Notes under the pieces: generated by a model
Database searches by the model: none
Told to the model about the DNA's origin: nothing
The model's input: the letters and a program-made list of their open reading frames with translations, nothing else
NCBI RefSeq assembly: GCF_057098645.1
Contig: NZ_CM169472.1
Reading direction: 5' to 3' (one strand)
Length of the DNA stretch: 64,000 nucleotides
Part shown: positions 3,919 through 25,268 of the stretch, in pieces
Layout of the letters: the number at the start of each line of letters is the position of its first letter
Numbering within the stretch: position 1 is the first letter of the stretch
Translations under genes and position numbers: made by a program

Positions 3919-3931
3919 TTCCTGGTTCAGG

Positions 3932-5890: not shown

Positions 5891-5976
5891 ACGTCGCAGA
5901 CAACAACTCTGATGGCCCGTAAGGGCTTTTTTTGTACCTGAAATCAGCCCCTGAACGGGGCTGTGCGGAGACAGTT

Positions 5977-6568: not shown

Positions 6569-6579
6569 AGAGGTGTGGG

Positions 6580-7158
6580 ATGAAGGGGCTTGAGAATGCC
6601 ATCCGTAATCTGAACAGCCTTGATACCCGTATGGTGCCACAGGCCAGCGCATGGGCGATAAACCGTGTGGCACAGAAAGCGGTCTCGGTTGCCACCCGGC
6701 AGGTTGCCGGGAATACCGTTGCGGGAGATAACCAGGTGAAAGGGATCCCCCTGAAACTGGTACGTCAGCGTGTCCGGGTGTTTAAAGCCAGTCCGTCAGG
6801 AAAAATGACGGCCAGGATCCGCGTTAACCGGGGCAATCTGCCCGCCATTAAGCTGGGGACAGCCCGGGTCAGACTGGCCCGGCGTGGTGGAAAACTGCAG
6901 TACCGTGGCAGTGTGCTGAAGGTGGGTAAATATCTTTTCCGGGATGCGTTTATTCAGCAACTGGCGAATGGTCGCTGGCATGTGATGCGGCGTATTGATG
7001 GCAAAAATCGTTACCCCATTGATGTGGTGAAAATCCCGCTTTCCGGACCGCTGACACAGGCATTTGAAGATGCCCGCGACCGCATCATTGCTGCGGAAAT
7101 GCCGAAACAGCTGGGGTATGCACTGAAACAACAACTGAGGTTATGGCTGACCCGATGA
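6580..7158 (+). CDS. Z: Tail completion protein Z
   Basis: 192 aa, the same length as lambda gpZ, with colinear similarity (NGRWHVM.R..GKNRYPIDVVKIP, LGYAL..QLR). Confidence 0.8.
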   Translation: MKGLENAIRNLNSLDTRMVPQASAWAINRVAQKAVSVATRQVAGNTVAGDNQVKGIPLKLVRQRVRVFKASPSGKMTARIRVNRGNLPAIKLGTARVRLARRGGKLQYRGSVLKVGKYLFRDAFIQQLANGRWHVMRRIDGKNRYPIDVVKIPLSGPLTQAFEDARDRIIAAEMPKQLGYALKQQLRLWLTR

Positions 7159-7556
7159 ACCGACATACACAAATCCGCCAGGCCGTACTGGCACGCCTTC
7201 GGGAACAGTGTGGAGACAGCGCCACGTTTTTTGACGGGCTTCCGGCATTTATTGATGCGCAGGAACTGCCTGCCGTGGCGGTGTGGCTGAGTGATGCTCA
7301 GTACACCGGAAAAATGACGGATGAAGATGACTGGCAGGCTGTTCTGCATATTGCTGTCTTCATCCGGGCACAGGCACCGGATTCAGAGCTGGATATGTGG
7401 ATGGAGAGCACCATTTTCCCGGCCCTGAATGATATACCGGCACTTTCCGGACTCATCGACACCCTGATCCCTCTCGGTTTTAACTATCAACGTGATAATG
7501 AGATGGCCACCTGGGCGATGGCGGAAATCACGTACCAGATCACGTACACGAATTAA
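7143..7556 (+). CDS. U: Tail terminator protein U
   Basis: 137 aa with lambda gpU-like motifs (ATFFDG, PAVAV.L, PDSELD.WMES, DIPALS). Confidence 0.8.
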   Translation: MADPMNRHTQIRQAVLARLREQCGDSATFFDGLPAFIDAQELPAVAVWLSDAQYTGKMTDEDDWQAVLHIAVFIRAQAPDSELDMWMESTIFPALNDIPALSGLIDTLIPLGFNYQRDNEMATWAMAEITYQITYTN

Positions 7557-7561
7557 AGGAG

Positions 7562-8311
7562 GTGGCAATGACCACACCAAATCCACTGGCAAAAACGAAA
7601 GGTGCGGGAACGACGTTCTGGATGTACACCGGCAAGGGCGATGCGTTTGCGAACCCTTTATCGGACACTGACTGGCTGCGTCTTGCGATGGTGAAGGATC
7701 TGCAACCTGGCGAAATGACCGCTGATGCAGAAGATGACACTTATCTCGATGATGAAGATGCAGACTGGAAAACGACAACCCAGGGGCAGAAATCCGTCGG
7801 TGATACTTCGGCGACGCTGGCCTGGCGTCCGGGTGACAGCGGGCAGAAAAAACTGGTTCAGTTGTTCGACTCCGGTGAAGTCTGCGCGTTTCGTATCAAA
7901 TATCCCAACGGCACTGTTGATGTTTTCCGTGGCTGGCTGAGCTCACTGGGTAAAACCATTGCCTCAAAAGACGTGATGACCCGCACAGTGAAAATCAGCG
8001 GTGTGGGGCGTCCGTATCTGGCAGAGGAAGGCACTGAAACAGTGAGCGTTACCGGGCTGACGGTGGCACCGGCATCTGCCAGTGTAAAAGTGGGAGCAAC
8101 CACCACGCTGACCTTTACAGTAAAACCTGACGGAGCCAGTGACAAAGCGATCAGTGTGCATTCGACAGATCCACAGACTGCCACGGTGACCCTGAACGGG
8201 CTTGTGGCCACGGTGAAAGGCGTGAAGCAGGGCAGTGTCAGCATTGTGGGCATGACTTCTGACGGCGATTTTGTGGCAGTGGCTGCGGTGGCTGTCAGCG
8301 CCGCAGGTTAA
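7562..8311 (+). CDS. V: Major tail protein V with C-terminal Ig-like domain
   Basis: 249 aa, near-colinear with lambda gpV (KGAGTT.W.Y.G, YLDDEDADW, FRGW.SS.GK). Strong SD AAGGAGG precedes the start. Confidence 0.9.
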   Translation: MAMTTPNPLAKTKGAGTTFWMYTGKGDAFANPLSDTDWLRLAMVKDLQPGEMTADAEDDTYLDDEDADWKTTTQGQKSVGDTSATLAWRPGDSGQKKLVQLFDSGEVCAFRIKYPNGTVDVFRGWLSSLGKTIASKDVMTRTVKISGVGRPYLAEEGTETVSVTGLTVAPASASVKVGATTTLTFTVKPDGASDKAISVHSTDPQTATVTLNGLVATVKGVKQGSVSIVGMTSDGDFVAVAAVAVSAAG

Positions 8312-8331
8312 CAGGACGATACTCATCATTT

Positions 8332-8355
8332 GCCCCGGTTATCCGGGGCTTTTTT
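8332..8355 (+). terminator. Stem-loop with T-run between V and G (possible attenuator)
   Basis: GCCCCGG-TTAT-CCGGGGC followed by TTTTTT, immediately after the V stop. Confidence 0.45.
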
Positions 8356-8368
8356 GCAGGTGGAGAAC

Positions 8369-8758
8369 ATGATGTTTCTGAAACAGGGCACGTTTAATTA
8401 TGAAAAGCAGTCCGTGGTGCTCAGTGAGCTGTCCGGGCTGCAGAGAATTGAATATCTGGCGTTTGTTCAGCAGCGAACGGCAAAGTTTGATGCCGAAGAG
8501 GGAGAACTGCCGGAGGCTGAACGACAGATTGCTTTTCTGCGGATGGGGATGGATATCAATGCCTGGCTGGTTTCCCGCTCACTGTGGAATGCGGAACAGT
8601 CTCAGGATGTTGAGACGCTTTGCGCATCCGTTATTACAACATGGTCGTATGATGCCCTGGGAGCGGGGGCGGAGATGGTTCTGTCGCTGAGCGGTATGGG
8701 AGCCATTGAGAATGCCGGGGATTTGGAGCATGAGGTGCTGACGCCGGAAAAGTCCTGA
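8369..8758 (+). CDS. G: Tail assembly chaperone G
   Basis: Start MMFLKQ parallels lambda G MFLKT, and the LSELSGLQRIEYLA motif matches. The ORF-track TTG start at 8330 lies inside the upstream hairpin and is rejected. Confidence 0.8.
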   Translation: MMFLKQGTFNYEKQSVVLSELSGLQRIEYLAFVQQRTAKFDAEEGELPEAERQIAFLRMGMDINAWLVSRSLWNAEQSQDVETLCASVITTWSYDALGAGAEMVLSLSGMGAIENAGDLEHEVLTPEKS

Positions 8759-9096
8759 CGCGGGAAATGCAGTTTGTCATGCGGCTTGCCCGGGAGTTCC
8801 GGCGGGCAGACTGGCGGCGGATGCTGTCGGAAATGTCGGCCACTGAGCTTGGTGAGTGGGGCGATTATTTCCGGATGCAGAGCTTCAGTGATGTCTGGAT
8901 GGATGCGCAGTTTGCCTCGCTGAAGGCATTGATCGTGAGAATGGTGTCCGGCAGCAGTGATGCTGCGGTGGCTGATTTCAGCCTTTTACCGGAAGAGAAC
9001 GGGATACCGGAGCGAACGGACGAAGAACTGATGCATCTTGGAGAAGGTATTTCCGGAGGTGTGCGTTATGGACCAGATAGCCAACCTGGTCATTGA
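8734..9096 (+). CDS. T: Tail assembly chaperone T segment, expressed as a G-T fusion by -1 frameshift
   Basis: The -1 frame relative to G is open from 8734 and continues to 9096. G ends at 8758, so the shift must occur in 8734-8758. The lambda GGGAAAG site is replaced here by GGAAAAG at 8746-8752. Confidence 0.6.
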   Translation, partial: GADAGKVLTREMQFVMRLAREFRRADWRRMLSEMSATELGEWGDYFRMQSFSDVWMDAQFASLKALIVRMVSGSSDAAVADFSLLPEENGIPERTDEELMHLGEGISGGVRYGPDSQPGH

Positions 9097-12000
9097 TTTG
9101 GGGATTGATGCGGCAGAGTTTAAAAATGAAATTCCCCGTATCAAAAACCTTCTGAATGGTGCCGCCAGCGATGCAGAACGGTCTTCTGCCCGTATGCAGC
9201 GTTTTATGGAGCGTCAGACTCAGGCCGCCCGGCAGACAACGCAGGCGGCTTCTTCGGCTGCAACAGCCGCCTCCGTCCATGCGCAGACGGTGGAGAAGAA
9301 CGCACAGGCTCATGAACGCATGGCCCGCGAGGTGGAGAAAACCCGCCAGCGCATGGAGGCGCTGAGCCAGAAAATGCGCGATGAACAGGCGCAGGCCATG
9401 GCTCTGGCGGAGGCTCAGGATAAAGCGGCTGCTGCGTTTTATCGTCAGATTGACAGTGTGAAACAGGCCAGTGCGGGGCTGCAGGAATTACAGCGTATTC
9501 AGCAGCAGATCCGACAGGCCAGAAACAGTGGCGGGATTGGTCAGCAGGATTATCTGGCGCTGATTTCTGAGGTTACGGCGAAAACCCGTGTTCTTACACA
9601 GGCTGAGGAAGAGGCTACCCGACAGAAAGTGGCGTTTATCCGTCAGCTTAAAGAGCAGGCAACCCGCCAGAATCTTTCTTCTTCTGAGTTGCTTCGTGCT
9701 AAGGCTGCCCAGCTGGGGGTAAGCAGTGCTGCAGAAGTGTATATCCGCAAAATGGAGCAGGCAGGAAAAGCCACGCATTCGCTGGGTCTGAAAAGTGCAG
9801 CGGCCCGCCAGGAGATAGGCGTTCTGATAGGTGAACTGGCTCGCGGCAATTTAGGTGCGCTGAGGGGATCCGGGATAACGCTGGCTAACCGTGCCGGATG
9901 GATAGACACACTGATGTCACCGAAAGGCATGATGCTGGGCGGGGTTATTGGCGGTATTGCCGCGGCCGTCTATGGTCTGGGTAAAGCCTGGTATGATGGT
10001 CAGAAGGAGGGGGAAGAATTTAACCGCCAGTTGTCGCTGACGGGGCATTATGCCGGAGTCACTGCCGGGCAGCTGTGGACGCTCAGTCGTGCTATTTCCG
10101 GGAATGGTATTACGCAACATGCTGCAGCCGGTGCGCTGGCTCAGGTGGTGGGGAGTGGTGCATTTCGTGGAAACGATATCGGTATGGTGGCGAGAGCTGC
10201 CGCACAGATGGAGCGATCGGTTGGCCAGTCGGTCAGCGATACCATAAATCAGTTTAAGCGGCTGAAGGATGATCCTGTAAATGCCGCGAAGGCTCTGGAC
10301 AATGAGCTGCATTTTCTTACTGCCACTCAGCTTGAGCAGATACGCGTCCTTGGGGAACAGGGGCGGTCCAGTGATGCGGCACGGATAGCCATGTCTGCAC
10401 TGGCAGAGGAAACCGGTCGGCGTACTGCGGATATTGATAATAACCTCAATGCGCTGGGCAGTACGCTGAAGTATCTGTCTGATTTATGGAGTCGTTTCTG
10501 GGATGCGGCCATGAATATTGGTCGTGAAGACTCGCTGGATGAACAGATTTCCGCTTTACAGGAGAAAGTGTCGCAGGCGAAAAGACTCCCCTGGACGGCA
10601 TCATCTTCTCAGGTTGAGTACGATCAGCAGCGTCTTAACGAGCTTCAGGAGAAAAAACGCCAGAAGGATTTGCAGGATGCAAAAGAGCAGGCAGAGCGGA
10701 ATTATCAGGAGCAACAGAAACGCCGTAATGCTGAAAATGCTGCACTGAACCGGATGAATGAAACGGAAGCAGCACGACATCAGCGTGAAATTGCGCGTAT
10801 TAATGCCATGCAGTACGCCGATCAGGCTGTCAGGGATGCGGCGATACAACGTGAAAATGAACGTTACGAGAAAGCCCTGGCATCCGGTAAGAAAAAAACA
10901 CGCGAACCCCGTAATGATGAGGCCACCCGGTTATTGCTGCAGTACAGTCAGCAACAGGCACAGGTGGAAGGACAGATTGCTGCTGCCAGACAGTCAGCAG
11001 GCATTGCCACGGAAAGGATGACAGAAGCGCATAAACAGCTTCTGGCTCTGCAGCAGCGCATCAGCGACCTGGACGGGAAAAAACTGACGGCAGATGAAAA
11101 GAGTGTGCTGGCCCGTAAAGATGAACTGATTCAGGCACTGACGCTGCTGGATGTAAAACAGCAGGAGCTTCAGAAACAGACGGCACTCAACGAGCTGAAG
11201 AAAAAAACAATTCAGCTGACCAGTCAACTGGCTGAAGAAGAGCGCGCTCAGCGTCAGCAACATGACCTGGATATCGCCACGGTGGGTATGGGTGATCAGC
11301 AGCGGCAGCGATATCAGGTACAACTGAGTCTTCGCCAGAAATACCAGCAACAGCTGGAACAGTTGAGGCGGGATAGTGAGCAGAAAGGAACATATAACAC
11401 GGATGACTACAGAAAGGCCGAGCAGGCGCTGACGGAGAGCCTGAACCGACAACTGAATGAGAATCGCCGTTACTGGCAACAGCTTGAAGTTGTGCAGGGT
11501 AACTGGAAAAACGGAGTCCTGCGTGCATTTCAGGATTTTACCGTGGATGCAGATAATACGGCAGGAACAGCAGAACAGGTGTTCTCGTCAGCCTTCAGCA
11601 ACATGGGAAATGGCCTGGCAACTTTTGTCACTACCGGCAAACTCAATTTCAAATCCTTCACCTCTTCTGTGCTGTCAGATATGGCGAAAATCCTGGCGCA
11701 GGCAACCATGATGAAATCGATAAAAGGGATTGGCAGTGTACTGGGATTTGATCTCAGCAGCCTTTCCCTGAATGCCAATGGGGGGATTTATCAGTCTGCT
11801 GATTTGAGTCGTTACAGTGGCACGGTGGTTAACCGTCCGACGTTTTTTGCTTTTGCAAAAGGCGCGGGTGTGATGGGGGAAGCGGGACCTGAAGCCATTC
11901 TGCCACTGCGTCGTGGTGCTGACGGTAAGCTGGGGGTTGTGGCGGATATTGGTGGTTCAGGTATGGCGATGTTTGCCCCGCAGTACAACATCGAGATCAA

Positions 12001-12133
12001 TAACGATGGCACGAACGGGCAGATAGGTCCGGCTGCCCTGAAGGTGGTTTATGACCTTGGGAAAAAAGCGGCAGCGGACTTTATGCAACAGCAGGCCCGT
12101 GATGGTGGTCGGTTAAGTGGAGCATATCGGTAA
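9068..12133 (+). CDS. H: Tail tape measure protein H
   Basis: About 1021 aa, coiled-coil-rich. The C-terminus (NDGTNGQIGPAALK.VYD) matches lambda gpH. Start chosen at MDQIANLVIDL, by analogy to lambda H MAEPVGDLVVDL. Confidence 0.85.
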   Translation: MDQIANLVIDLGIDAAEFKNEIPRIKNLLNGAASDAERSSARMQRFMERQTQAARQTTQAASSAATAASVHAQTVEKNAQAHERMAREVEKTRQRMEALSQKMRDEQAQAMALAEAQDKAAAAFYRQIDSVKQASAGLQELQRIQQQIRQARNSGGIGQQDYLALISEVTAKTRVLTQAEEEATRQKVAFIRQLKEQATRQNLSSSELLRAKAAQLGVSSAAEVYIRKMEQAGKATHSLGLKSAAARQEIGVLIGELARGNLGALRGSGITLANRAGWIDTLMSPKGMMLGGVIGGIAAAVYGLGKAWYDGQKEGEEFNRQLSLTGHYAGVTAGQLWTLSRAISGNGITQHAAAGALAQVVGSGAFRGNDIGMVARAAAQMERSVGQSVSDTINQFKRLKDDPVNAAKALDNELHFLTATQLEQIRVLGEQGRSSDAARIAMSALAEETGRRTADIDNNLNALGSTLKYLSDLWSRFWDAAMNIGREDSLDEQISALQEKVSQAKRLPWTASSSQVEYDQQRLNELQEKKRQKDLQDAKEQAERNYQEQQKRRNAENAALNRMNETEAARHQREIARINAMQYADQAVRDAAIQRENERYEKALASGKKKTREPRNDEATRLLLQYSQQQAQVEGQIAAARQSAGIATERMTEAHKQLLALQQRISDLDGKKLTADEKSVLARKDELIQALTLLDVKQQELQKQTALNELKKKTIQLTSQLAEEERAQRQQHDLDIATVGMGDQQRQRYQVQLSLRQKYQQQLEQLRRDSEQKGTYNTDDYRKAEQALTESLNRQLNENRRYWQQLEVVQGNWKNGVLRAFQDFTVDADNTAGTAEQVFSSAFSNMGNGLATFVTTGKLNFKSFTSSVLSDMAKILAQATMMKSIKGIGSVLGFDLSSLSLNANGGIYQSADLSRYSGTVVNRPTFFAFAKGAGVMGEAGPEAILPLRRGADGKLGVVADIGGSGMAMFAPQYNIEINNDGTNGQIGPAALKVVYDLGKKAAADFMQQQARDGGRLSGAYR

Positions 12134-12462
12134 TGGAGACGTTTCACTGGAAAGTGCGCCCGGATATGAATGTGGTATCAGAGCCGAAAGTGGTGACAGT
12201 GAAGCTGGGCGATGGTTATGAACAGCGTCGTGCGGCGGGACTGAATAACCAGTTGTCGACTTACAGCGTGACGATACGTGTTCGTAAATGTGAACACCCA
12301 TCTTTAAAAGCCTTTCTGGAACGGCACGGTGGCGTCCGTGCATTTCAGTGGACGCCACCTTATGACTGGAAACCGATTAGGGTGGTTTGTCGTAAATGGT
12401 CGGCAAGCGTGGGGGCGCTGTGGGTAACCATAACGGCAGATTTTGAACAGGTCGTGGCATAG
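12133..12462 (+). CDS. M: Minor tail protein M
   Basis: 109 aa, colinear with lambda gpM (FHWKVRPDMNV, GDGYEQR, TYSV, HGG, WTPPYDWK). Confidence 0.9.
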   Translation: METFHWKVRPDMNVVSEPKVVTVKLGDGYEQRRAAGLNNQLSTYSVTIRVRKCEHPSLKAFLERHGGVRAFQWTPPYDWKPIRVVCRKWSASVGALWVTITADFEQVVA

Positions 12463-12471
12463 GAGGCTCTG

Positions 12472-13170
12472 ATGCAGGATATTCCACAGGAAACACATCA
12501 TGAGACGACACGCCTCACTCAGTCAGCCCAGGTGGTGCTCTGGGAAATCGATCTGACAGAGGTCGGTGGTGAACGTTATTTTTTCTGTAATGAGCAGAAC
12601 GAAAAAGGTGAGCCGGTTACCTGGCAGGGGCGGCAGTATCAGGCATACCCCATTCAGGGGACGGGATTTGAACTGAATGGCAAGGGCAGTGCTGCCCGTC
12701 CGACACTGACGGTTTCTAACCTGCACGGCATGGTCACCGGGATGGCGGAAGACCTGCAGAGTCTGGTCGGCGGAACGGTGGTCAGGCGTAAGGTTTACGC
12801 CCGTTTTCTGGATGCGGTGAACTTCGTCAACGGAAACAGCGACGCCGATCCGGAGCAGGAGGTGATCAGCCGCTGGCGCATCGAGCAGTGCAGCGAACTG
12901 AGTGCGGTCAGTGCCTCCTTTGTGTTGTCCACACCGACGGAAACGGATGGTGCCGTTTTTCCGGGGCGCATCATGCTGGCCAACACCTGCACCTGGACCT
13001 ATCGCAGTGATGAGTGCGGTTATCACGGTCCGGCTGTCGCGGATGAATATGATCAGCCGACGTCCGATATCACGAAGGATAAATGCAGCAAATGCCTGAG
13101 TGGCTGTAAGTTCCGCAATAATGTCGGCAACTTTGGCGGCTTCCTTTCCATTAACAAACTTTCGCAGTAA
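12472..13170 (+). CDS. L: Minor tail protein L
   Basis: 232 aa, nearly identical to lambda gpL as I recall it. Confidence 0.9.
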   Translation: MQDIPQETHHETTRLTQSAQVVLWEIDLTEVGGERYFFCNEQNEKGEPVTWQGRQYQAYPIQGTGFELNGKGSAARPTLTVSNLHGMVTGMAEDLQSLVGGTVVRRKVYARFLDAVNFVNGNSDADPEQEVISRWRIEQCSELSAVSASFVLSTPTETDGAVFPGRIMLANTCTWTYRSDECGYHGPAVADEYDQPTSDITKDKCSKCLSGCKFRNNVGNFGGFLSINKLSQ

Positions 13171-13175
13171 ATCCC

Positions 13176-13919
13176 ATGACAGAGACAGAATCAGCGATTC
13201 TGGCGCACGCCCGGCGATGTGCGCCAGCGGAGTCGTGCGGCTTCGTGGTGAGAACGCCGGAAGGGGAAAGATATTTTCCCTGCGTGAATATCTCCGGTGA
13301 GCCGGAGGATTATTTCCGGATGTCGCCGGAGGACTGGCTGCGGGCAGAGATGCAGGGTGAGATTGTGGCGCTGGTCCACAGCCACCCCGGTGGCCTGCCC
13401 TGGCTGAGTGAGGCTGACCGGCGGCTGCAGGTGCAGAGTGATTTGCCATGGTGGCTGGTCTGCCGGGGGGCGATTCATAAATTCCGCTGTGTGCCGCATC
13501 TTACCGGGCGGCGCTTTGAGCACGGGGTGACGGATTGTTACACGCTGTTCCGGGACGCTTACCATCTGGCGGGGATTGAGATGCCGGATTTTCATCGTGA
13601 GGATGACTGGTGGCGTAACGGCCAGAATCTCTATCTGGATAATCTGGAGGCCACAGGACTGTATCAGGTGCCGTTGTCATCAGCACAACCGGGTGATGTG
13701 CTGCTGTGCTGTTTTGGTTCATCGGTGCCGAATCATGCCGCCATTTACTGTGGTGACGGCGAGCTGCTGCACCATATTCCTGAACAACTGAGCAAACGAG
13801 AGAGGTATACAGACAAATGGCAGCGACGCACACACTCCCTCTGGCGTCACCGGGCATGGCACGCATCTGCCTTTACGGGGATTTACAACGATTTGGCCGC
13901 CGCATCGACCTTCGTGTGA
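13176..13919 (+). CDS. K: Tail tip assembly protein K
   Basis: 247 aa, nearly identical to lambda gpK as I recall it. Confidence 0.9.
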   Translation: MTETESAILAHARRCAPAESCGFVVRTPEGERYFPCVNISGEPEDYFRMSPEDWLRAEMQGEIVALVHSHPGGLPWLSEADRRLQVQSDLPWWLVCRGAIHKFRCVPHLTGRRFEHGVTDCYTLFRDAYHLAGIEMPDFHREDDWWRNGQNLYLDNLEATGLYQVPLSSAQPGDVLLCCFGSSVPNHAAIYCGDGELLHHIPEQLSKRERYTDKWQRRTHSLWRHRAWHASAFTGIYNDLAAASTFV

Positions 13920-14458
13920 AAACGGGGGCTGAAGCCATCCGCGCACTGGCCACACAGCTCCCGGCGTTTCGTCAGAAACTGAGCGACGGCTGGTATCAGG
14001 TACGGATTGCCGGGCGTGATGCAGGCGAAAATGAATTATCAGCCCGTCTTAATGAACCGCTGGCAAATGGTGCTGTGATCCATATCGTGCCGCGTCTGGC
14101 AGGAGCCAAAAGTGGCGGTGTGTTTCAGGCTGTGCTGGGGGCGGCTGTTATGGCGGTTGCTATATGGATGCCGGGGGTAGGAATTATGGCGAGTAATCTG
14201 CTGTTTTCTCTCGGTGCCAGTATGACGCTTGGCGGTGTTGCACAGATGCTGGCCCCTAAACCCAAAACCCCCCGCACACAGACAACGGATAACGGCAAAC
14301 AGAACACCTATTTTTCTTCACTGGATAATATGGTTGCCCAGGGCAATGTCCTGCCCGTTCTGTACGGTGAAATGCGTGTGGGGTCGCGGGTGGTATCTCA
14401 GGAGATCAGCACGGCAGATGAAGGTGATGGTGGTCAGGTTGTGGTGATTGGTCGCTGA
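13817..14458 (+). CDS. I: Tail tip assembly protein I
   Basis: 213 aa. Its N-terminus MAATHTLPLASPGMARICLYGDLQRFGRRIDLRV matches lambda gpI. It overlaps the K 3' end as in lambda. Confidence 0.85.
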   Translation: MAATHTLPLASPGMARICLYGDLQRFGRRIDLRVKTGAEAIRALATQLPAFRQKLSDGWYQVRIAGRDAGENELSARLNEPLANGAVIHIVPRLAGAKSGGVFQAVLGAAVMAVAIWMPGVGIMASNLLFSLGASMTLGGVAQMLAPKPKTPRTQTTDNGKQNTYFSSLDNMVAQGNVLPVLYGEMRVGSRVVSQEISTADEGDGGQVVVIGR

Positions 14459-14518
14459 TGAAAAATGTTTTATGTGAAACCGCCTGCGGGCGGTTTTGTC
14501 GTTTATGGAGCGTGACGA

Positions 14519-17500
14519 ATGGGTAAAGGCAGCAGTAAGGGGCATACCCCGCGCGAAGCGAAGGACAACCTGAAATCCACGCAGTTGCTGAGTGTGATTG
14601 ATGCCATCAGTGAAGGGCCGGTTGAAGGTCCGGTGGATGGATTAAAAAGCGTGCTGCTGAACAGTACGCCGGTGCTGGACAGTGAGGGGAATACCAACAT
14701 CGCCGGTGTCACGGTGGTGTTCCGGGCTGGTGAGCAGGAGCAGACTCCGCCGGAGGGATTTGAATCCTCCGGCTCCGAGACGGTGCTGGGTACGGAAGTG
14801 AAATACGACACGCCGATCACCCGCACCATCACGTCGGCAAACATCGACCGTCTGCGCTTTACCTTCGGTGTACAGGCACTGGTGGAAACCACCTCAAAGG
14901 GTGACAGGAATCCGTCGGAAGTCCGTCTGCTGGTTCAGATACAACGTAACGGTGGCTGGGTGACGGAAAAAGACATCACCATTAAGGGCAAAACCACCTC
15001 GCAGTATCTGGCCTCGGTGGTGGTGGGTAGCCTGCCGCCGCGCCCGTTTAATATCCGGATGCGCAGGATGACGCCGGACAGCACCACAGACCAGCTGCAG
15101 AACAAAACGCTCTGGTCGTCATACACCGAAATCATCGATGTGAAACAGTGCTACCCGAACACGGCACTGGTCGGCGTGCAGGTGGACTCGGAGCAGTTCG
15201 GCAGCCAGCAGGTGAGCCGTAATTATCATCTTCGCGGGCGCATTCTGCAGGTGCCGTCGAACTATAACCCGCAGACGCGGCAATACAGCGGTATCTGGGA
15301 CGGAACGTTAAAGCCAGCATACAGCAACAACATGGCCTGGTGTCTGTGGGATATGCTGACCCACCCGCGCTACGGCATGGGGAAACGTCTTGGTGCGGCG
15401 GATGTGGACAAATGGGCGCTGTATGTCATCGGCCAGTATTGCGACCAGTCGGTGCCGGACGGTTTTGGCGGCACGGAGTCGCGCATCACCTGTAACGCTT
15501 ACCTGACCACACAGCGTAAGGCGTGGGATGTTCTCAGTGATTTCTGCTCGGCGATGCGCTGTATGCCGGTATGGAACGGGCAGACGCTGACGTTCGTGCA
15601 GGACCGACCGTCGGATAAGGTGTGGACCTATAACCGCAGTAATGTGGTGATGCCGGATGATGGCGCGCCGTTCCGCTACAGTTTCAGCGCCCTGAAGGAC
15701 CGCCATAATGCCGTTGAGGTGAACTGGATTGACCCGAATAACGGCTGGGAGACGGCGACAGAGCTTGTGGAGGACACGCAGGCCATTCTCCGTTACGGTC
15801 GTAACGTCACGAAGATGGATGCCTTTGGCTGTACCAGCCGGGGGCAGGCACACCGCGCCGGGCTGTGGCTGATTAAAACGGAGCTGCTGGAAACGCAGAC
15901 TGTGGACTTCAGCGTGGGCGCAGAAGGGCTTCGCCATGTACCGGGCGATGTCATTGAAATCTGCGATGATGACTATGCGGGTATCAGCGTCGGCGGGCGC
16001 GTGCTTGCGGTAAACAGCCAGACCCGGACACTGACGCTCGACCGTGAAATCATGCTGCCATCCTCCGGAACCACGCTGATAAGCCTGGTTGACGGAAATG
16101 GCAATCCGGTCAGCGTGGAGGTCCAGTCCGTCACCGACGGCGTGAAGGTGAAAGTGAGCCGTGTTCCTGACGGCGTTGCCGAATACAGCGTGTGGGGGCT
16201 GAAGCTGCCGACGCTGCGCCAGCGCCTGTTCCGCTGCGTGAGTATCCGTGAGAACGATGACGGCACGTATGCCATCACCGCCGTGCAGCATGTACCGGAG
16301 AAAGAAGCCATCGTGGATAACGGGGCGCACTTTGACGGTGACCAGAGCGGCACGGTGAATGGTGTCACGCCGCCAGCAGTGCAGCACCTGACCGCCGAAG
16401 TCACTGCAGACAGCGGGGAATATCAGGTGCTGGCGCGATGGGACACACCGAAGGTGGTGAAGGGCGTGAGCTTCCTGCTCCGTCTGACCGTAACAGCGGA
16501 TGACGGCAGTGAGCGGCTGGTCAGCACGGCCCGGACGACGGAAACCACTTACCGCTTCACACAACTGGCGCTGGGGAACTACAGGCTGACAGTCCGGGCA
16601 GTAAATGCGTGGGGGCAGCAGGGCGATCCGGCGTCGGTATCGTTCCGGATTGCCGCACCGGCAGCGCCGTCGCGGATTGAGCTGACGCCGGGCTATTTTC
16701 AGATAACCGCCACGCCGCATCTTGCGGTTTATGATCCGACGGTACAGTTTGAGTTCTGGTTCTCGGAAAAGCGGATTGCGGATATCAGGCAGGTTGAAAC
16801 CACAGCACGCTATCTTGGCACGGCGCTGTACTGGATAGCCGCCAGTATCAATATCAAACCGGGCCATGATTATTACTTTTATATCCGCAGTGTGAACACC
16901 GTTGGCAAATCGGCATTCGTGGAGGCTGTTGGTCAGCCGAGTGATGATGCATCCGGTTATCTGGATTTTTTCAAAGGCGAGATAGGGAAAACCCATCTGG
17001 CTCAGGAGCTGTGGACGCAGATTGATAACGGTCAGCTTGCGCCTGACCTGGCTGAAATCAGGACGTCCATTACGGATGTCAGCAATGAAATCACGCAGAC
17101 CGTCAATAAGAAACTGGAAGACCAGAGTGCTGCAATTCAGCAGATACAGAAGGTTCAGGTTGATACAAATAATAACCTGAACAGCATGTGGGCTGTGAAG
17201 CTGCAGCAGATGCAGGACGGACGCCTTTATATCGCGGGTATTGGTGCCGGTATTGAGAATACCCCTGACGGCATGCAGAGTCAGGTGCTGCTGGCGGCGG
17301 ACAGGATTGCGATGGTTAATCCTGCGAATGGCAACACAAAACCGATGTTTGTTGGTCAGGGCGATCAGATATTCATGAACGACGTGTTCCTGAAACGCCT
17401 GACGGCTCCCACCATTACCAGCGGTGGAAATCCGCCGGCATTTTCCCTGACACCAGACGGAAAGCTGACCGCTAAAAATGCGGATATCAGCGGTAATGTG

Positions 17501-18001
17501 AATGCAAATTCAGGGACGCTCAACAATGTCACGATTAATGAAAACTGTCAGATTAAGGGGAAACTGTCAGCCAATCAGATTGAAGGCGATATTGTCAAAA
17601 CGGTCAGCAAGTCTTTCCCCTGCACGAACAGTTATGCCAGTGGCACCATCACGGTAAGAATCAGTGATGATCAGAAATTTGACCGGCAGGTCATGATACC
17701 GCCAGTGTTATTCCGCGGTGGTAAGCATGAGAATTTCAACAGTAATAACCAACAGTCATACTGGTATTCAACCTGCCGGTTAAGAGTGACCCGCAATGGT
17801 CAGGAGATTTTTAAGCAGTCCACGACGGATGCTCAGGGCGTATTTTCCTCAGTTATAGATATGCCTGCCGGACAGGGGACGCTGACACTGACATTCACCG
17901 TATCTTCATCAGGAGCGAATAACTGGACACCAACAACCAGTATCAGCGATCTGCTGGTTGTGGTGATGAAAAAATCCACAGCAGGTATCAGTATCAGCTG
18001 A
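14519..18001 (+). CDS. J: Tip attachment / host specificity protein J
   Basis: 1160 aa in the lambda J position after I, with SD GGAG upstream. Receptor specificity of the C-terminus cannot be assigned from sequence. Confidence 0.9.
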
Positions 18002-18019
18002 ATTTTATAACCCAGAACG

Positions 18020-18043
18020 GGCGTCAGAAATGACGCCTTTTTT
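18020..18043 (+). terminator. Rho-independent terminator after J
   Basis: GGCGTCA-GAAA-TGACGCC followed by TTTTTT. Confidence 0.7.
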
Positions 18044-18067
18044 ATTGCAGAAAAGCGAGAGGTAATT

Positions 18068-18667
18068 ATGCGTAAACTTTATGCCGCCATTTTGTCCGCA
18101 GCCATTTGTCTGGCCGTATCCGGTGCGCCTGCATGGGCGTCTGAACATCAGTCCACGCTGAGCGCGGGGTATCTTCATGCCCGGACGAACGTTCCCGGCG
18201 GTGATGATCTGAACGGGATTAACGTGAAATACCGTTATGAGTTTACGGACACACTGGGGATGGTGACGTCGTTCAGCTATGCAGGAGACAAGAATCGCCA
18301 GATTACCCGTTACAGCGATACCCGCTGGCATGAAGATTCCATTCGTAACCGCTGGTTCAGCGTAATGGCGGGGCCGTCTGTGCGCGTGAATGAATGGTTC
18401 AGCGCGTATGCGATGGCGGGTGTGGCTTACAGCCGTGTGTCGACTTTCTCCGGGGATTATCTCCGCGTAACTGACAACAAGGGGAAAAAGCACGATGTGC
18501 TGACCGGAAGTGATGACGGTCGCCACAGCAACACGTCTCTGGCGTGGGGAGCTGGCGTGCAGTTTAACCCGACCGAATCCGTGGCCATTGATGTCGCTTA
18601 TGAAGGCTCCGGCAGTGGTGACTGGCGCACTGACGGTTTCATCGTGGGTGTCGGTTATAAATTCTGA
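18068..18667 (+). CDS. lom: Lom outer-membrane protein (Ail/PagC/Lom family) moron
   Basis: 199 aa with signal peptide. The C-terminus [25 protein letters not shown] matches lambda Lom. Own SD GAGAGG. Confidence 0.85.
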
Positions 18668-18693
18668 TTAGCCAGGTAACACAGTGTTATGAC

Positions 18694-18720
18694 AGCCCGC
18701 CGGTTCAGGCGGGCTTTTTT
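18694..18720 (+). terminator. Rho-independent terminator after lom
   Basis: AGCCCGCC-GGTTCAG-GCGGGCT followed by TTTTTT. Confidence 0.75.
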
Positions 18721-18725
18721 GTGGG

Positions 18726-21700
18726 GTGAATATGGCAGTAAAGATTTCAGGTGTACTGAAAGACGGCACAGGAAAACCGGTACAGAACTGCACAATCCAG
18801 CTGAAAGCAAAACGTAACAGCACCACGGTGGTGGTGAACACGCTGGCCTCAGAAAATCCGGATGAAGCCGGGCGTTACAGCATGGACGTTGAGTACGGGC
18901 AGTACAGCGTTATTCTGTTGGTGGAGGGATTCCCGCCGTCACATGCCGGGACCATCACCGTGTATGAAGATTCCCGACCCGGTACGCTGAATGATTTTCT
19001 CGGTGCCATGACGGAGGATGATGCCCGTCCTGAGGCACTGCGCCGTTTTGAACTGATGGTGGAAGAGGTGGCGCGTAACGCGTCCGCGGTGGCACAGAAC
19101 ACGGCAGCCGCGAAGAAGTCAGCCAGCGATGCCGGCACATCAGCCCGTGAGGCGGCAACCCATGCGACTGATGCTGCAGGCTCAGCACGCGCAGCCAGCA
19201 CGTCAGCCGGACAGGCCGCGTCGTCGGCTCAGTCAGCGTCTTCCAGCGCAGGAACGGCATCAACAAAGGCCAGTGAAGCATCGAAAAGTGCTGCTGCTGC
19301 AGAGTCCTCAAAAAGCGCGGCGGCTACCAGTGCCGGTGCGGCGAAAACGTCAGAAACGAATGCTGCAGCGTCACAAAAATCTGCAGCCACTTCTGCATCC
19401 ACCGCGACCACGAAAGCGTCAGAAGCTGCCACCTCAGCCCGGGATGCAGCGGCCTCAAAAGAGGCAGCGAAATCATCAGAAACGAGCGCAGCCTCGAGCG
19501 CCAGTAATGCCGCTTCCTCGGCAACAGCGGCAGGAAATTCCGCGAAGGCGGCAAAAACGTCCGAGACGAACGCCAGGTCTTCTGAAACGGCAGCGGAACA
19601 GAGCGCCTCAGCTGCGGCAGACTCTGAGACAACAGCTGCATCATCGGCCCGTGAGGCGTCCATTAAGGCAGAGGAGGCAGCAGTCAGTGCCACCGCCGCC
19701 GGAAAATCGGCAGAAAGCGCCGCATCATCCGCTTCAACAGCCACAACGAAGGCTGGCGAAGCCACTGAACAGGCCAGCGCAGCAGCGAGGTCTGCTTCCG
19801 CAGCGAAGACATCCGAAACGAACGCGAAAGCGTCGGAAACCAGCGCAGAATCCTCAAAAACGGCTGCCGCATCGTCCGCCAGTTCGGCGGCGTCATCGGC
19901 ATCATCGGCGTCTGCTTCAAAAGATGAGGCGACCAGACAGGCGTCAGCAGCGAGGGGCAGCGCCACGACGGCATCCACGAAGGCGACAGAGGCTGCTGGC
20001 AGTGCGGCAGCGGCAGCACAGAGCAAAAGTACGGCAGAATCCGCAGCAACGCGCGCCGAGACAGCAGCAAAACGGGCAGAGGATATTGCATCCGCCGTGG
20101 CGCTTGAGGATGCGAGCACGACGAAAAAGGGGATAGTACAGCTCAGCAGTGCGACCAACAGCACTTCCGAGTCACTGGCGGCAACGCCAAAAGCCGTTAA
20201 GGCCGCGTATGACCTGGCTAACGGGAAATACACCGCACAGGATGCAACGACAGCACAGAAAGGGATAATCCAGCTAAGCAGCGCGACCAACAGCACGTCT
20301 GAAACGCTGGCGGCAACGCCAAAGGCAGTAAAAGCAGCCAATGACAATGCTGAGAAACGTCTGCAGAAAGATCAGAACGGTGCGGATATCCCTGGCAAAG
20401 ACACCTTTACGAAAAATATTGGTGCCTGCCGTGCCTTCGGTGGGTCAGTAAGCACAACAACAGGAAACTGGACGACTGCACAGTTTATCGAGTGGCTGGA
20501 TTCTCAGGGAGCATTTAACCATCCATACTGGATGTGCAAGGGTTCCTGGTCTTATGGCAATAATAAAATCATTACTGATACTGGCTGCGGTAATATTCAT
20601 CTCGCCGGAGCTGTCATTGAAGTAATGGGGATAAAGTCAGCGATGACGATCCGCATTACCACACCGACCACCTCCACTGGTGGTGGAACAACTAACGCCC
20701 AGTTTACCTATATTAATCACGGAACAGATTATTCACCTGGCTGGCGAAGGGACTATAACTCCAGAAATAAGCCAACGGCATCAGAGATCGGGGCGTTACC
20801 GTCAGGTGGAACAGCAGTATCATCAGTTAATCTGTCTTCAAAAGGTCGGGTAACCGCGCTGACAGACAATACGCAGGGGGCAACAGGTCTTGAGTTATAC
20901 GAGGTGTATAACAACGGATATCCAACAGCGTATGGAAATATCATTCACCTGAAAGGGATGACAGCCGTTGGCGAAGGTGAGTTACTCATCGGCTGGAGTG
21001 GTACAAGCGGTGCTCATGCTCCGGCATTTATTCGTTCACGACGGGATACGACCGACGCAAACTGGTCGCCGTGGGCGCAGCTTTACACCTCGGCTCATCC
21101 TCCTGCAGAGTTTTATCCAGTCGGTGCACCAATCCCGTGGCCATCAGATACCGTTCCGTCTGGTTATGCCCTGATGCAGGGGCAGACTTTTGACAAATCT
21201 GCTTACCCGAAACTTGCAGCCGCTTATCCGTCAGGCGTGATCCCTGATATGCGTGGCTGGACGATTAAGGGCAAGCCCGCCAGTGATCGAGCCGTATTGT
21301 CTCAGGAACAGGACGGCATTAAATCACACACCCACAGCGCCAGCGTATCCAGTACGGATTTGGGGACGAAAACCACATCGTCGTTTGATTACGGCACTAA
21401 ATCCACGAATAACACTGGTGCGCATACCCATAGTGTTAGCGGTACGGCTGCTTCAGCCGGTGCACATACCCATTCGATGACATTTGTTTCAGGTGGTTCC
21501 AGTGGTGCTCCGGGAAGTGGATCACCTGATTACTCTAAATACAGTGTTAACACTTCTTCTGCAGGCGCTCATACGCACTCTGTATCGGGTACTGCTGCAA
21601 GCGCAGGTGCACACGCACATACTGTCGGTATTGGTGCTCATACGCACTCCGTTGCGATTGGTTCACATGGACATACCATCACCGTTAACGCTGCTGGTAA

Positions 21701-21755
21701 CGCGGAAAACACCGTCAAAAACATCGCATTTAACTATATTGTGAGGCTTGCATAA
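18726..21755 (+). CDS. stf: Side tail fiber protein Stf (mosaic)
   Basis: 1009 aa. N-terminus [26 protein letters not shown] and the His-rich C-terminus ([55 protein letters not shown]) match lambda Stf. The middle carries an Ala/Ser-rich shaft and an extra Cys-containing domain. Confidence 0.85.
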
Positions 21756-22336
21756 TGGCATTCAGAATGAGTGAACAACCACGGACCATAAAAATTTATA
21801 ATCTGCTGGCCGGAACTAATGAATTTATTGGTGAAGGTGACGCATATATTCCGCCTCATACAGGTCTGCCTGTAAACAGTACCTATATTGCACCGCCAGA
21901 TATTCCGGCTGGTTTCGTGGCTGTTTTCAACAGTGATGAGTCATCGTGGCATCTCGTTGAAGATCATCGGGGTAAAACGGTTTATGACGTGGCTTCCGGC
22001 GACGCGTTATTTATTTCTGAACTCGGTCCGTTACCGGAAAATGTTACCTGGTTATCGCCGGAAGGGGAGTTTCAGAAGTGGAACGGCACAGCCTGGTTGA
22101 AGGATACGGAAGCAGAAAAACTGTTCCGGATCCGGGAGGCGGAAGAAACAAAAAACAACCTGATGCAGGTAGCCAGTGAGCATATTGCGCCGCTTCAGGA
22201 TGCTGCAGATCTGGAAATTGCAACGGAGGAAGAAATCTCGTTGCTGGAAGCATGGAAAAAGTATCGGGTATTGCTGAACCGTGTTGATACATCAACTGCA
22301 CCTGATATTGAGTGGCCAGCAGCACCTGTAGGATAA
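21755..22336 (+). CDS. tfa: Tail fiber assembly protein Tfa
   Basis: 193 aa, near-identical to lambda Tfa as I recall it ([39 protein letters not shown]). Confidence 0.9.
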
Positions 22337-22436
22337 AACAAAAACTTTATATAGAGTGCTCTTTTTACAATGTCAGATAAATGCTGGCCGAAATGTAATT
22401 CATTAGAAGTAAAAAACAGAATGGTTTGAGGGTGTG

Positions 22437-22480
22437 TCATCCCTTTATTATTAATAGTGAAAGGGATGACATTCTTTTTT
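22437..22480 (+). terminator. Rho-independent terminator downstream of tfa
   Basis: 11-bp stem GTCATCCCTTT / AAAGGGATGAC with a 12-nt loop, followed by ATTCTTTTTT. Confidence 0.7.
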
Positions 22481-22676
22481 AAGGAGTGTCTTTTTTATCG
22501 GAATATAAGTTGAGATAATGTTTAACTCGATTATAAAAATGTTTTTTCTTATCTCTTGGAATGCTTACTATTATATGCATTATGGGGCTTGTGTTTGCCG
22601 ATAATTTAGCTGATGCATACATTGAAGCAAGGAATTCAATATCAGTATTGTCAAAATTAAAACTTTCTCCATCCAT
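22479..22676 (-). CDS. Hypothetical 65-aa protein (orphan moron ORF)
   Basis: ORF in low-GC DNA with a plausible SD (AAGGA 8 nt before the ATG on the minus strand). No recognisable motif. Confidence 0.35.
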   Translation of the reverse strand: MDGESFNFDNTDIEFLASMYASAKLSANTSPIMHIIVSIPRDKKKHFYNRVKHYLNLYSDKKDTP

Positions 22677-22982
22677 TTCAATTCCTTATGTGTTTGGCTC
22701 GGTATACTGTATCCCATGAGATTTTACGTAAATTGTCATATCTAATATTGCAATTATAATTGTAGCTAATTATTTTAAATTAGGTGAAAGTTTATTGCGA
22801 ATGATTAACTCGGAAAAAAAGATTTCTCACGGTTAGTAAGTATATTAGGTCAGTATTCAGATATGAGTAGTGTTAACGACTAAATTTGCAATCACATATA
22901 GATTTTTGTTCTAATAAAGATGTTTTATTTGGCGATTCGTCAAGCATCTCCACTTAAGCAATCGTATATATTAAGAGTGCAA

Positions 22983-23078
22983 AAGAGAAGGGACAACGTT
23001 GCTCGCACTCTGGAATAAATATCGGGTATTGTTAAAGTGTGGTGATACATAATTGTACGGGATATTGAGTGGCCTGAA
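22983..23078 (+). pseudogene. Decayed second copy of the tfa 3' end
   Basis: CTGGAATAAATATCGGGTATTG...GATACAT...GATATTGAGTGGCC aligns to the tfa 3' end at about 22240-22330 (CTGGAAGCATGGAAAAAGTATCGGGTATTG...GATACATCA...GATATTGAGTGGCC), but with an in-frame stop and an indel. Confidence 0.5.
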
Positions 23079-23213
23079 GTCCCAGTCATTGAGTAATCTT
23101 TTCGTGATATGCCGCAGAAACGTTGTATGCAGGAACGTGCTGCGGCTAACTGGTGAACTTTCGATAGTGCGGGTATTGAATGATTTCCAGCCGTTACCGA
23201 TTTTACGTGCTAA

Positions 23214-23462
23214 TTAGTGAACAAACCACTCGTCAGCAGACTCCCAGGTATCTTTCAGAGTTTCCTGAACAAAAGTTTTAGCTGAATCTTTATCGGCAGT
23301 GCGCGTAACAGAAAGGCCATCGTTGCTGGTGGTTTTTACGATCACCTCTACATCGTCATAACGCTTACTGATGCGTCGAGTTAATTCTTCCTTTAACGCA
23401 TCCACAGCACCGTTTGGCATTTTAGTCATTTTCTCTTTGGCTATGCAGATCTCAATACGCAT
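23214..23462 (-). CDS. DinI-like SOS protein
   Basis: 82 aa. The N-terminal MRIE..IAK and C-terminal [16 protein letters not shown] match E. coli DinI (MRIEVTIAK ... ILQETWESADDWFV). SD GAGGG upstream on the minus strand. Confidence 0.85.
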
Positions 23463-23475
23463 AAAAATCCCTCTA

Positions 23476-23495
23476 CACTGTGTTTGTATACAGTA
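23476..23495. promoter_or_regulatory. LexA box 1 (SOS operator) upstream of the dinI-like gene
   Basis: CACTGTGTTTGTATACAGTA, which fits CTG-N10-CAG and the consensus TACTGTATATATATACAGTA. Lies 16 bp upstream of the dinI-like start. Confidence 0.7.
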
Positions 23496-23503
23496 TTATT
23501 TTT

Positions 23504-23523
23504 AACTGTATGAATAAACAGTG
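23504..23523. promoter_or_regulatory. LexA box 2 (SOS operator)
   Basis: AACTGTATGAATAAACAGTG, fits CTG-N10-CAG. Its centre is 28 bp from box 1. Confidence 0.65.
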
Positions 23524-23681
23524 TCAATAGAACAAAGATTGCTGCATGTACAAATGTTCTTTGGCTACAAATACACCTACTGATCATGTTCTGCTATGCT
23601 CTGATACCTCCAAAATGTACAATCAGCGGCATGAATTTTTCTTTGTACATATGATTGTACATAATCAAAGAGACAACAATT

Positions 23682-25268
23682 ATGACAAGCCTTTTGGCCG
23701 CAGAGGTAGCGAAAAGAAGAACCTTTGCAATTATTTCTCACCCGGACGCCGGTAAGACTACCATCACCGAGAAGGTGCTGCTGTTCGGACAGGCCATTCA
23801 GACTGCCGGTACAGTAAAAGGCCGTGGTTCCAACCAGCACGCTAAGTCGGACTGGATGGAGATGGAAAAGCAGCGTGGGATCTCCATTACTACGTCTGTG
23901 ATGCAGTTTCCGTATCACGATTGCCTGGTTAACCTGCTCGACACCCCGGGGCACGAAGACTTCTCGGAAGATACCTACCGTACCCTGACGGCGGTGGACT
24001 GCTGCCTGATGGTTATCGACGCCGCAAAAGGTGTTGAAGATCGTACCCGTAAGCTGATGGAAGTTACCCGTCTGCGCGACACGCCGATCCTCACCTTTAT
24101 GAACAAACTTGACCGTGATATCCGCGACCCGATGGAATTGCTCGATGAAGTTGAGAACGAGCTGAAAATTGGCTGCGCACCGATCACCTGGCCAATTGGC
24201 TGCGGCAAGCTGTTTAAAGGCGTTTACCACCTTTATAAAGATGAAACCTATCTCTATCAGAGCGGTAAAGGGCACACCATTCAGGAAGTCCGCATTGTTA
24301 AAGGGCTGAATAACCCGGATCTCGATGCTGCGGTTGGTGAAGATCTGGCACAGCAGCTGCGTGACGAACTGGAACTGGTTAAAGGCGCGTCTAACGAGTT
24401 CGACAAAGAGCTGTTCCTTGCGGGCGAAATCACTCCGGTATTCTTCGGTACTGCGCTGGGTAACTTCGGCGTTGATCATATGCTGGATGGCCTGGTGGAG
24501 TGGGCGCCTGCGCCGATGCCGCGTCAGACCGATACCCGTACCGTAGAAGCGAGCGAAGATAAATTTACCGGCTTCGTATTTAAAATTCAGGCCAACATGG
24601 ACCCGAAACACCGCGACCGCGTGGCGTTTATGCGTGTGGTGTCCGGTAAATATGAAAAAGGCATGAAACTGCGCCAGGTGCGCACTGCGAAAGATGTGGT
24701 GATCTCCGACGCGCTGACCTTTATGGCGGGTGACCGTTCGCACGTTGAAGAAGCGTATCCGGGCGATATCCTCGGCCTGCACAACCACGGCACCATTCAG
24801 ATCGGCGACACCTTTACCCAGGGTGAGATGATGAAGTTCACCGGTATTCCGAACTTCGCACCAGAACTGTTCCGTCGTATCCGCCTGAAAGATCCGCTGA
24901 AGCAAAAACAGCTGCTCAAAGGGCTGGTACAGCTTTCCGAAGAGGGCGCGGTGCAGGTGTTCCGTCCAATCTCCAACAACGATCTGATCGTTGGTGCAGT
25001 TGGTGTGCTGCAGTTTGATGTGGTGGTAGCGCGCCTGAAGAGCGAATACAACGTTGAAGCAGTGTATGAGTCAGTCAACGTTGCCACTGCCCGCTGGGTA
25101 GAATGTGCAGACGCGAAGAAATTCGAAGAGTTCAAGCGTAAGAACGAAAGCCAACTGGCGCTTGATGGCGGCGATAACCTCGCTTACATCGCTACCAGCA
25201 TGGTCAACCTGCGCCTGGCACAGGAACGTTATCCGGACGTTCAGTTCCACCAGACCCGCGAGCATTAA
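23682..25268 (+). CDS. prfC: Peptide chain release factor 3
   Basis: 528 aa with the GTPase motifs [12 protein letters not shown] and DTPGHEDF. Beyond the first ~9 residues it matches K-12 RF3 as I recall it. Start chosen at ATG 23682 (MTSLLAAEV); the ORF-track start at 23655 is an extension. Confidence 0.95.

Follow-up and report, generated by a model that had tools for sequence, protein, structure and literature searches.

What becomes of a conserved gene when a phage integrates into its 5' end? The question is raised by a 64,000-nt stretch of DNA (hereafter the window; RefSeq assembly GCF_057098645.1, contig NZ_CM169472.1), in which a lambdoid prophage lies against prfC, the gene for the translation factor release factor 3 (RF3). 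An earlier interpretation made from the letters alone (the sequence-only reading) had set a prophage end against the 5' end of prfC, which is borne out by the tail-fibre, tail-fibre assembly, and dinI-like (minus strand) genes found upstream, and had proposed that a phage integrated there supplies the first codons of RF3. Based on comparisons with free phages, lysogens, and empty sites, we consider it very probable that positions 23463-23743 form the attR site of a 45-kb lambdoid prophage of a type termed here prfC-type, that this prophage rebuilds prfC, and that RF3 is made from transcription starting in phage DNA. The prfC-type group comprises the cdtI phage, 2H10, Ayreon, and many Stx1a and Stx2c phages.

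Attachment sites

The junction was aligned with two free phages, 2H10 and the cdtI phage (the latter reportedly described by Asakura et al. in 2007), and with the empty attB site of strain REL606. In both phage genomes the junction sequence lies mid-record, i.e. in non-integrated form, and both attP sites match the window up to ...TTTGCAATTATTTCTCACCC (23743) and then run on into phage DNA, CAATAATTAA...; from 23744 the window is host DNA, GGACGCCGGTAAG..., as in the empty site and different from attP. In the four-way alignment the only stretch common to attP and attB was ATTATTTCTCACCC, a 14-bp identity at 23730-23743 (plus strand) which spans prfC codons 17-21 (IISHP) and forms the att core (O), the crossover region of attR. 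The sequence-only reading had assigned the junction to 23530-23735, and a junction is present there, with a core that reaches 8 nt beyond that span.

The core occurs once in the window, so that attL lies outside it. We located attL in Escherichia coli YPE10 (NZ_CP041448.1; source, pork), which is 100% identical to the window over 21700-23700 and differs by one mismatch over 1-6500. A search for a direct core repeat at the other prophage end, run as a refutation check, found ATTATTTCTCACCC repeated directly 45,156 bp away in this genome, where attL consists, in order, of yjjG, the native prfC upstream region, the native first codons, the core, phage DNA, and a tyrosine integrase gene. The O145 strain RM9872 has the same att layout around a decayed 30-kb prophage, also with ATTATTTCTCACCC at attL. 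The stub left at attL is 24 codons long (21 native prfC codons, two phage codons, and a stop), the integrase gene begins about 230 nt past it on the same strand, and no terminator was predicted between the two.

With attP, attB, attL, and attR all recovered, the two prophage ends can be derived as attR = P-O-B' (23463-23743) and attL = B-O-P'. The codon preceding the core ends in a phage-type base in attR (GCA) and a host-type base in attL (GCC), which places the strand exchange inside the core. The att sites are those of a textbook conservative site-specific integration within a 14-bp core, and the earlier claim of a phage integrated in the 5' end of prfC thus holds for all four sites.

By megablast, the whole segment 23480-23900 was present in 698 of the 5,426 complete E. 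coli genomes, and in 4,700-odd others, nearly all of the remainder, which have the empty site, the match began only at about 23702 and ran rightwards. Since the whole junction recurs in 698 genomes, and since the free phages are identical to it as far as 23743 and then diverge, it is not a chance arrangement. In prophage-free strains both the N-terminus and the upstream DNA differ from the window, and the K-12 N-terminus given in the sequence-only reading is that of the prophage-free REL606 allele. One match (H39), which began only at query position 242 and was suspected of marking a second type of element at prfC, proved to be an empty site.

These sites suggest the following course of events. 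A tyrosine integrase belonging to the IntSXT cluster carried out the integration, with recombination inside the 14-bp identity whose codons specify the beta-1 strand residues IISHP, directly ahead of the RF3 P-loop. The cut falls 48 nt into the gene, and the P arm carries a diverged ribosome-binding site (RBS) context together with codons 1-16, so that integration restores prfC to a full length of 528 aa. What stays behind at attL is the native promoter, the RBS, and the first 21 codons, in the form of the 24-codon stub upstream of int.

The rebuilt prfC gene

The hybrid prfC open reading frame (ORF), at 23682..25268 on the plus strand, encodes 528 aa plus a stop, begins with the ATG at 23682-23684, and is made up of phage codons 1-16 (23682..23729), the core, and a host-derived B' side (23744..25268) which follows attB and departs from attP. 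The 16 phage-borne codons are identical in free phages 2H10 and cdtI, and the composition of the gene reflects the two sources, with a GC content of 54% in the rest of prfC against 32% in the 219 nt upstream (the phage arm). Two consecutive AGA codons had been singled out in the divergent stretch by the sequence-only reading; they are codons 12-13 (23715-23720) and the sole AGA or AGG codons in prfC, the other 29 arginines being encoded by CGT or CGC. No phage tRNA gene able to decode AGA was found in the 64-kb window.

Relative to the host allele of REL606, the phage-borne 5' end changes residues 2-8 and gives a product of 528 rather than 529 aa. For codons 9-16 (VAKRRTFA), there were eight nucleotide differences between the two alleles, all eight of them synonymous, and the peptide was preserved in 0 of 200,000 random placements of eight substitutions in the 27-nt segment of codons 8-16. 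Because all of the changes are synonymous and none of the random trials kept the peptide, the phage copy of the prfC 5' end is old and diverged and has been maintained as coding sequence under purifying selection. Such synonymous-only divergence would be hard to explain unless the phage codons were translated as the N-terminus of RF3. The element-borne gene end keeps both EVAKRRTFA and the reading frame, as a gene-restoring insertion does.

The residues that are replaced fall in a segment which is also variable between genera, as can be seen from the native prfC starts preserved in stubs (MSNSPFLQEV in Xenorhabdus, MSNTPFLSEV in Vibrio, and MTKQAAEV in Pseudomonas). The host-derived part of the gene differs from REL606 at 15 codons, all synonymous, with 0 nonsynonymous differences. 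PGAP calls prfC intact in the lysogens RM9872, SHP24, and YPE10, and it does so despite prophage decay in RM9872 (an IS3 and a deletion) and in SHP24 (a frameshifted dinI). The SHP24 locus (L007, 4125-4215) also revealed that the phage-borne N-terminus is polymorphic, with MTSLLATEV versus MTSLLAAEV, in a prophage whose tail fibre is truncated.

Transcription of prfC in lysogens

In the native yjjG-prfC spacer we found a sigma-70 candidate, TTGCCT-16-TAAAAT, with a position weight matrix (PWM) score of 11.7, above that of all 300 random windows, and in the lysogen this candidate is displaced to attL. With the native promoter left there, transcription of prfC, if any, must begin in phage DNA, at a place and with a strength that we can infer but not read off directly. 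A consensus promoter scan of the plus strand of the P arm returned none, and since the P-arm scans were negative we name no prfC promoter. The sequence-only reading had proposed that the phage carries a replacement 5' end and promoter to keep the gene working; purifying selection on the phage codons speaks for the replacement 5' end, and the promoter half of the proposal found no support, the P-arm sigma-70 scans being at background level. We suggest that lysogens would produce RF3 from transcripts that begin in phage DNA, at a level that is probably weaker than the native one or differently regulated. For an element inserted at dusA, a lacZ fusion revealed that expression of the target after integration was reduced but present (bioRxiv 10.1101/2021.06.18.448947, the same work as PMC8409611), and by analogy prfC expression in the lysogen may well be lower than native.

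Several points weigh against the production of RF3 from a rebuilt gene. On the plus strand of the conserved P arm (23495-23690) the best sigma-70 PWM score was 6.5, a value that 41% of random windows match. Ogura et al. (2007) leave open if such a lysogen transcribes or translates prfC (PMC2323221), and the prophage survey of Bobay (2013), under 'Integration Hotspots', counts prfC among the 'disrupted' core genes (PMC3603311). RF3 is, moreover, non-essential, which makes the intactness of the ORF in a recent lysogen a weak argument by itself. As regards the label 'disrupted', the anatomy of the att sites, in which the ORF is rebuilt, argues against it for prfC, and gene-restoring 5' insertions may be wrongly counted as disruptions in automated surveys.

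A somewhat unlikely alternative is that prfC has no dedicated promoter in the P arm and is expressed by transcription entering from further upstream in the prophage, in which case the level of RF3 would follow the cargo and the state of the phage. The entry points considered were a site at 22733-22760, a site overlapping a LexA box at 23472-23499, and Q-antiterminated late transcripts at induction. The first (22733..22760, plus strand) is a sigma-70 promoter-like sequence, TTGTCA-16-TATAAT, which matches 11 of 12 consensus positions, lies in variable AT-rich cargo, and faces prfC; no plus-strand terminator was predicted over 22770-23800, between this site and prfC, and we regard it as a candidate only for a read-through source. 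It belongs to a segment (22400-23110) absent from other prfC phages, however, and would not be a general solution, and near-consensus hexamer pairs are common in DNA of 29% GC (3 found versus 4.2 expected). The second, TCTACA-16-TATTAT (9 of 12 positions, plus strand), overlaps LexA box 1 (23478-23493) and likewise has no predicted terminator between it and prfC; it may be a by-product of the LexA palindromes. Any such transcript would also run antisense through dinI.

That prfC is knocked out or strongly silenced in lysogens, and that this is tolerated with RF3 being dispensable, is in our view quite unlikely. The displacement of both native promoter and RBS to attL would favour silencing, as would the lack of an above-background promoter in the P arm and the positions taken by the 2007 and 2013 papers. 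Yet an untranslated copy would not be expected to keep EVAKRRTFA through eight changes that are synonymous only, the ATG context AATTATGAC is retained, and prfC has not decayed in lysogens, including those whose prophages are degraded. The insertion is carried, in addition, by 13% of complete genomes. Two other elements also point away from silencing: SXT at prfC is reported to provide a promoter and an N-terminus (according to bioRxiv 10.1101/2021.06.18.448947, citing Hochhut and Waldor 1999), and the dusA target stays expressed as judged by the lacZ fusion. Finally, the notion that the divergent N-terminus is an ordinary host prfC allele with a prophage merely adjacent is refuted by the free-phage attP sites (which carry exactly this 5' end and then phage DNA), by the four-way alignment, and by YPE10 attL, where the native 5' end is kept as a stub, and every examined genome with this N-terminus has the prophage and empty sites are native.

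P arm and dinI module

The P arm of attR (23463..23681), which is AT-rich, includes the RBS region of prfC, and is identical to attP, also contains a cluster of TGTACA motifs. Four of these lie at 23547, 23616, 23644, and 23656, i.e. four in 152 nt of P arm versus six in the other 63.8 kb of the window (Poisson P ~2e-9). In phage 2H10, a 22-nt repeat, TGTACATATG(A/C)TTGTACATAAT, flanks the core, with its two copies separated by 264 bp, and one copy is present in the P arm of the window at 23644-23665, 17 nt upstream of the prfC ATG. Together the TGTACA motifs and the 22-nt repeat are putative arm-type sites of the integrase, as we infer from their sequence and position, and this fits the DUF4102 arm-binding domain of the enzyme. 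A looser arm-site pattern, TTGTACATAA with two mismatches, was not enriched window-wide (34 versus 38 expected), which leaves the local clustering of exact TGTACA as the one significant signal.

Directly upstream of the P arm, on the minus strand, is a dinI-like gene (23214..23462) which matches NCBIfam NF007893, 'DNA damage-inducible protein I', with E = 2.8e-20 and a score of 72.5 bits that is under the 111-bit curated cut-off. A DinI-like annotation is also found in lysogens and phages, and conservation among the other prfC phages extends from about 23112 up to the core. The dinI promoter region (23478..23527, minus strand) has TTGACA at 23527-23522 and a -10 element near 23503-23498, with two LexA-box-like palindromes of the form CTGT-N8-ACAG, CTGTGTTTGTATACAG at 23478-23493 and CTGTATGAATAAACAG at 23506-23521, situated 12 nt apart; these were the only CTGT-N8-ACAG matches in the window. 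In the lepA-integrating phage Gifsy-1, a LexA-controlled dinI/antirepressor unit has been described (PMC13090387). On this basis dinI, attP, and int may form one shared module.

Integrase and its relatives

The integrase, which lies outside the window and 230 nt from the core in both attP and attL, is 407 aa long and contains PF00589, PF13356 (DUF4102), and PF22022. It is 97-98% identical to the integrases of the prfC phage group, in which the attP/dinI module is 96-98% identical (96.8% versus cdtI). The integrases of the cdtI phage and SXT were placed by Smyshlyaev et al. (2021; PMC8138268) in one cluster that inserts at prfC.

Relatives of the integrase with 51-85% identity were found in Salmonella, Xenorhabdus innexi, Vibrio diabolicus, Pseudomonas, Acidovorax carolinensis, and a metagenome-assembled genome (MAG) labelled Micavibrio (loci L008, L009, L010/L011, L016, L017, and L018, with int at 4001 or 3001). 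In each, a prfC stub which ends right after IISHP, a cut seen in 7 genera, precedes int by 203-231 nt on the same strand. As judged from these sequences, the prfC site and the layout of a stub followed by int are conserved far outside E. coli. The Acidovorax and 'Micavibrio' loci have an identical start of the P' arm (CACCCCTAGCGCATTCTTCGCGTCAAGGGGGTG), which would mean either that one element is present in two classes or that the MAG is mis-binned.

Outside the prfC group, the nearest phage integrases were those of Salmonella phage SPN3UB (L012) and Klebsiella phage Kpn_R1 (L013), at 46% identity. In these phages a stub, MKNIRNFSIIAHIDN* (at about 1225-1272), precedes int on the same strand by some 230 nt and matches the 5' end of E. 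coli lepA, which encodes EF4, at 84%. The lepA stub breaks off where the prfC gene is cut in the equivalent phages, in the beta-1 strand that precedes the P-loop in a translational GTPase, and the cores of the lepA and prfC phages, ATCATTGCTCAC and ATTATTTCTCAC, are identical at 10 of 12 positions. Related integrases thus have one structural position as their target in genes for paralogous translational GTPases, and each brings a replacement 5' end. A non-exhaustive literature search found no papers linking the prfC and lepA targets. The sequence ATYATYNCNCAY is a motif common to translational GTPases.

A more distant integrase (41% identical), from Moraxella phage Mcat15 (L014, about 1290-1360), is preceded by a stub, MMPTPSHLTTISIIGHTNDDI*, whose 'ISIIGH' resembles the beta-1 strand of a GTPase, and two TTGTGTACATAA repeats are found directly before int.

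Comparison with known elements

Insertion into prfC with a rebuilt gene is already known, from the Stx1 phage in 2007 (PMC2323221) and from SXT in 1999, and the arrangement noticed by the sequence-only reading had thus been described before. Ogura et al. (2007) found a Stx1 phage at prfC in enterohaemorrhagic E. coli O103 (PMC2323221), and Stx1a and Stx2c phages have been reported at prfC in CC119 (PMC10132054). The Stx1, cdtI, and Stx2c prfC phages belong to the same phage group as our prophage and share its insertion site; unlike the Stx and cdtI phages, ours is without stx or cdt beside dinI and has Dsr1 next to int. In the accessible portions of the papers on Stx and cdtI prfC phages, the exact core, the synonymous-only divergence, and the orientation of int are absent.

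The SXT/R391 integrative and conjugative elements (ICEs) also integrate in the 5' end of prfC (PMC2791158; PMC9058013), with a 17-bp attP consensus of ATcATcTCtCACCCtGA (PMC9058013). In its E. coli form (ATTATTTCTCACCCGGA), the 17-bp site contains the phage core ATTATTTCTCACCC, which involves the same codons, and both kinds of element rely on a tyrosine integrase that has a DUF4102 arm-binding domain. In contrast to the SXT/R391 family, which are conjugative elements with nearly identical IntSXT (PMC2791158), the element described here is a lambdoid phage: it has genes for terminase, portal, capsid, tail, and lysis and lacks genes for conjugation. Its integrase has relatives in Vibrio and Shewanella that are about 51-52% identical. 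The SXT int gene requires the SetCD activator (PMC4344509), and no setCD was found in this prophage. From its gene content, the element is not an SXT/R391 ICE, and at the att site it works like SXT.

Elements at dusA, such as IMEVchUSA3 (PMC8409611), likewise insert into a conserved housekeeping gene at its 5' end, but their target gene and integrase family are different, and their effect on expression was measured by lacZ fusion. Phage 21 and e14 at icd (cited in PMC3603311), the classic example of prophages within a protein-coding gene, also carry a duplicate of the displaced gene end and leave the ORF as long as before. In those cases it is the 3' end that is replaced and the start signals remain native; here it is the 5' end, and the initiation signals must come from the phage. 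A comparable layout is that of the Gifsy-1-type phages at the 5' end of lepA (SPN3UB and Kpn_R1), with the same stub followed by int and with EF4 rather than RF3 as the target. The Gifsy-1 excision site lies within the first 123 bp of lepA (PMC13090387).

Prophage content and cargo

The window contains the right-hand 23.7 kb (1..23729, plus strand) of the 45,156-bp prophage, from terminase to tail fibres, cargo, dinI, and the P arm. Beyond it, the annotation of YPE10 lists terminase, portal, capsid, lysis, Q-like, repressor, and integrase genes and then yjjG. In 2H10 the annotated excisionase gene is on the strand opposite to the integrase gene.

The tail-fibre assembly gene upstream of prfC matches PHROG 105 (E = 1e-96). 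The tail-fibre ORF itself (18726-21755, 1009 aa) includes about 350 residues of low-complexity repeats rich in Ala, Ser, and Thr, and as a result long ORFs that are spurious appear in other frames as well as on the opposite strand.

The tail-fibre assembly gene is separated from dinI by a cargo segment (22400-23110, 29-32% GC) whose slot is occupied elsewhere by cdtABC or by an invertase and ydfK. In this prophage neither stx nor cdt is found in the slot adjoining dinI; it holds terminator-like hairpins at 22428-22490 and a 65-aa ORF (22479-22676, minus strand) for which no PHROG match was found.

At the attL end, the prophage of YPE10 has a 1,275-aa gene annotated as the defence-associated sirtuin Dsr1 (anti-phage) directly adjoining int. 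This gene (L015 22518-26345, equivalent to 4134517-4138344 of the YPE10 record) is outside the window and represents defence cargo in an att-proximal slot.

Implications

The prfC-type prophage offers a clean example of a highly conserved coding motif used as a landing site without destruction of the target gene. To what was already known of prfC insertions the present analysis adds the exact core and its coordinates, the signature of selection on the phage codons, and a strong native promoter displaced so as to face int, together with the lack of a recognisable replacement promoter, the frequency of the insertion (698/5,426), and the cross-genus breadth of the architecture. Expression of prfC after removal of its promoter is a question raised in 2007, and the precise att map makes it directly testable. 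At stake is a translation factor of about 13% of the complete E. coli genomes, many lysogens of Shiga-toxin and cdt phages among them.

We also put forward, as a tentative possibility, that integration brings about a reciprocal promoter swap in which the native prfC promoter reads through the stub into int and RF3 comes under weak signals of the phage arm. The stub-then-int layout is kept from E. coli to Acidovorax and in the lepA-targeting phages as well. If a swap of this kind takes place, Int, whose gene faces away from the early operon of the phage, would be kept made in the lysogen, and the signals for RF3 would be embedded in the integrase arm sites, about 150 nt from a LexA-controlled divergent promoter. 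The dosage of RF3, and with it termination and quality control, would then be altered in about one in eight E. coli strains.

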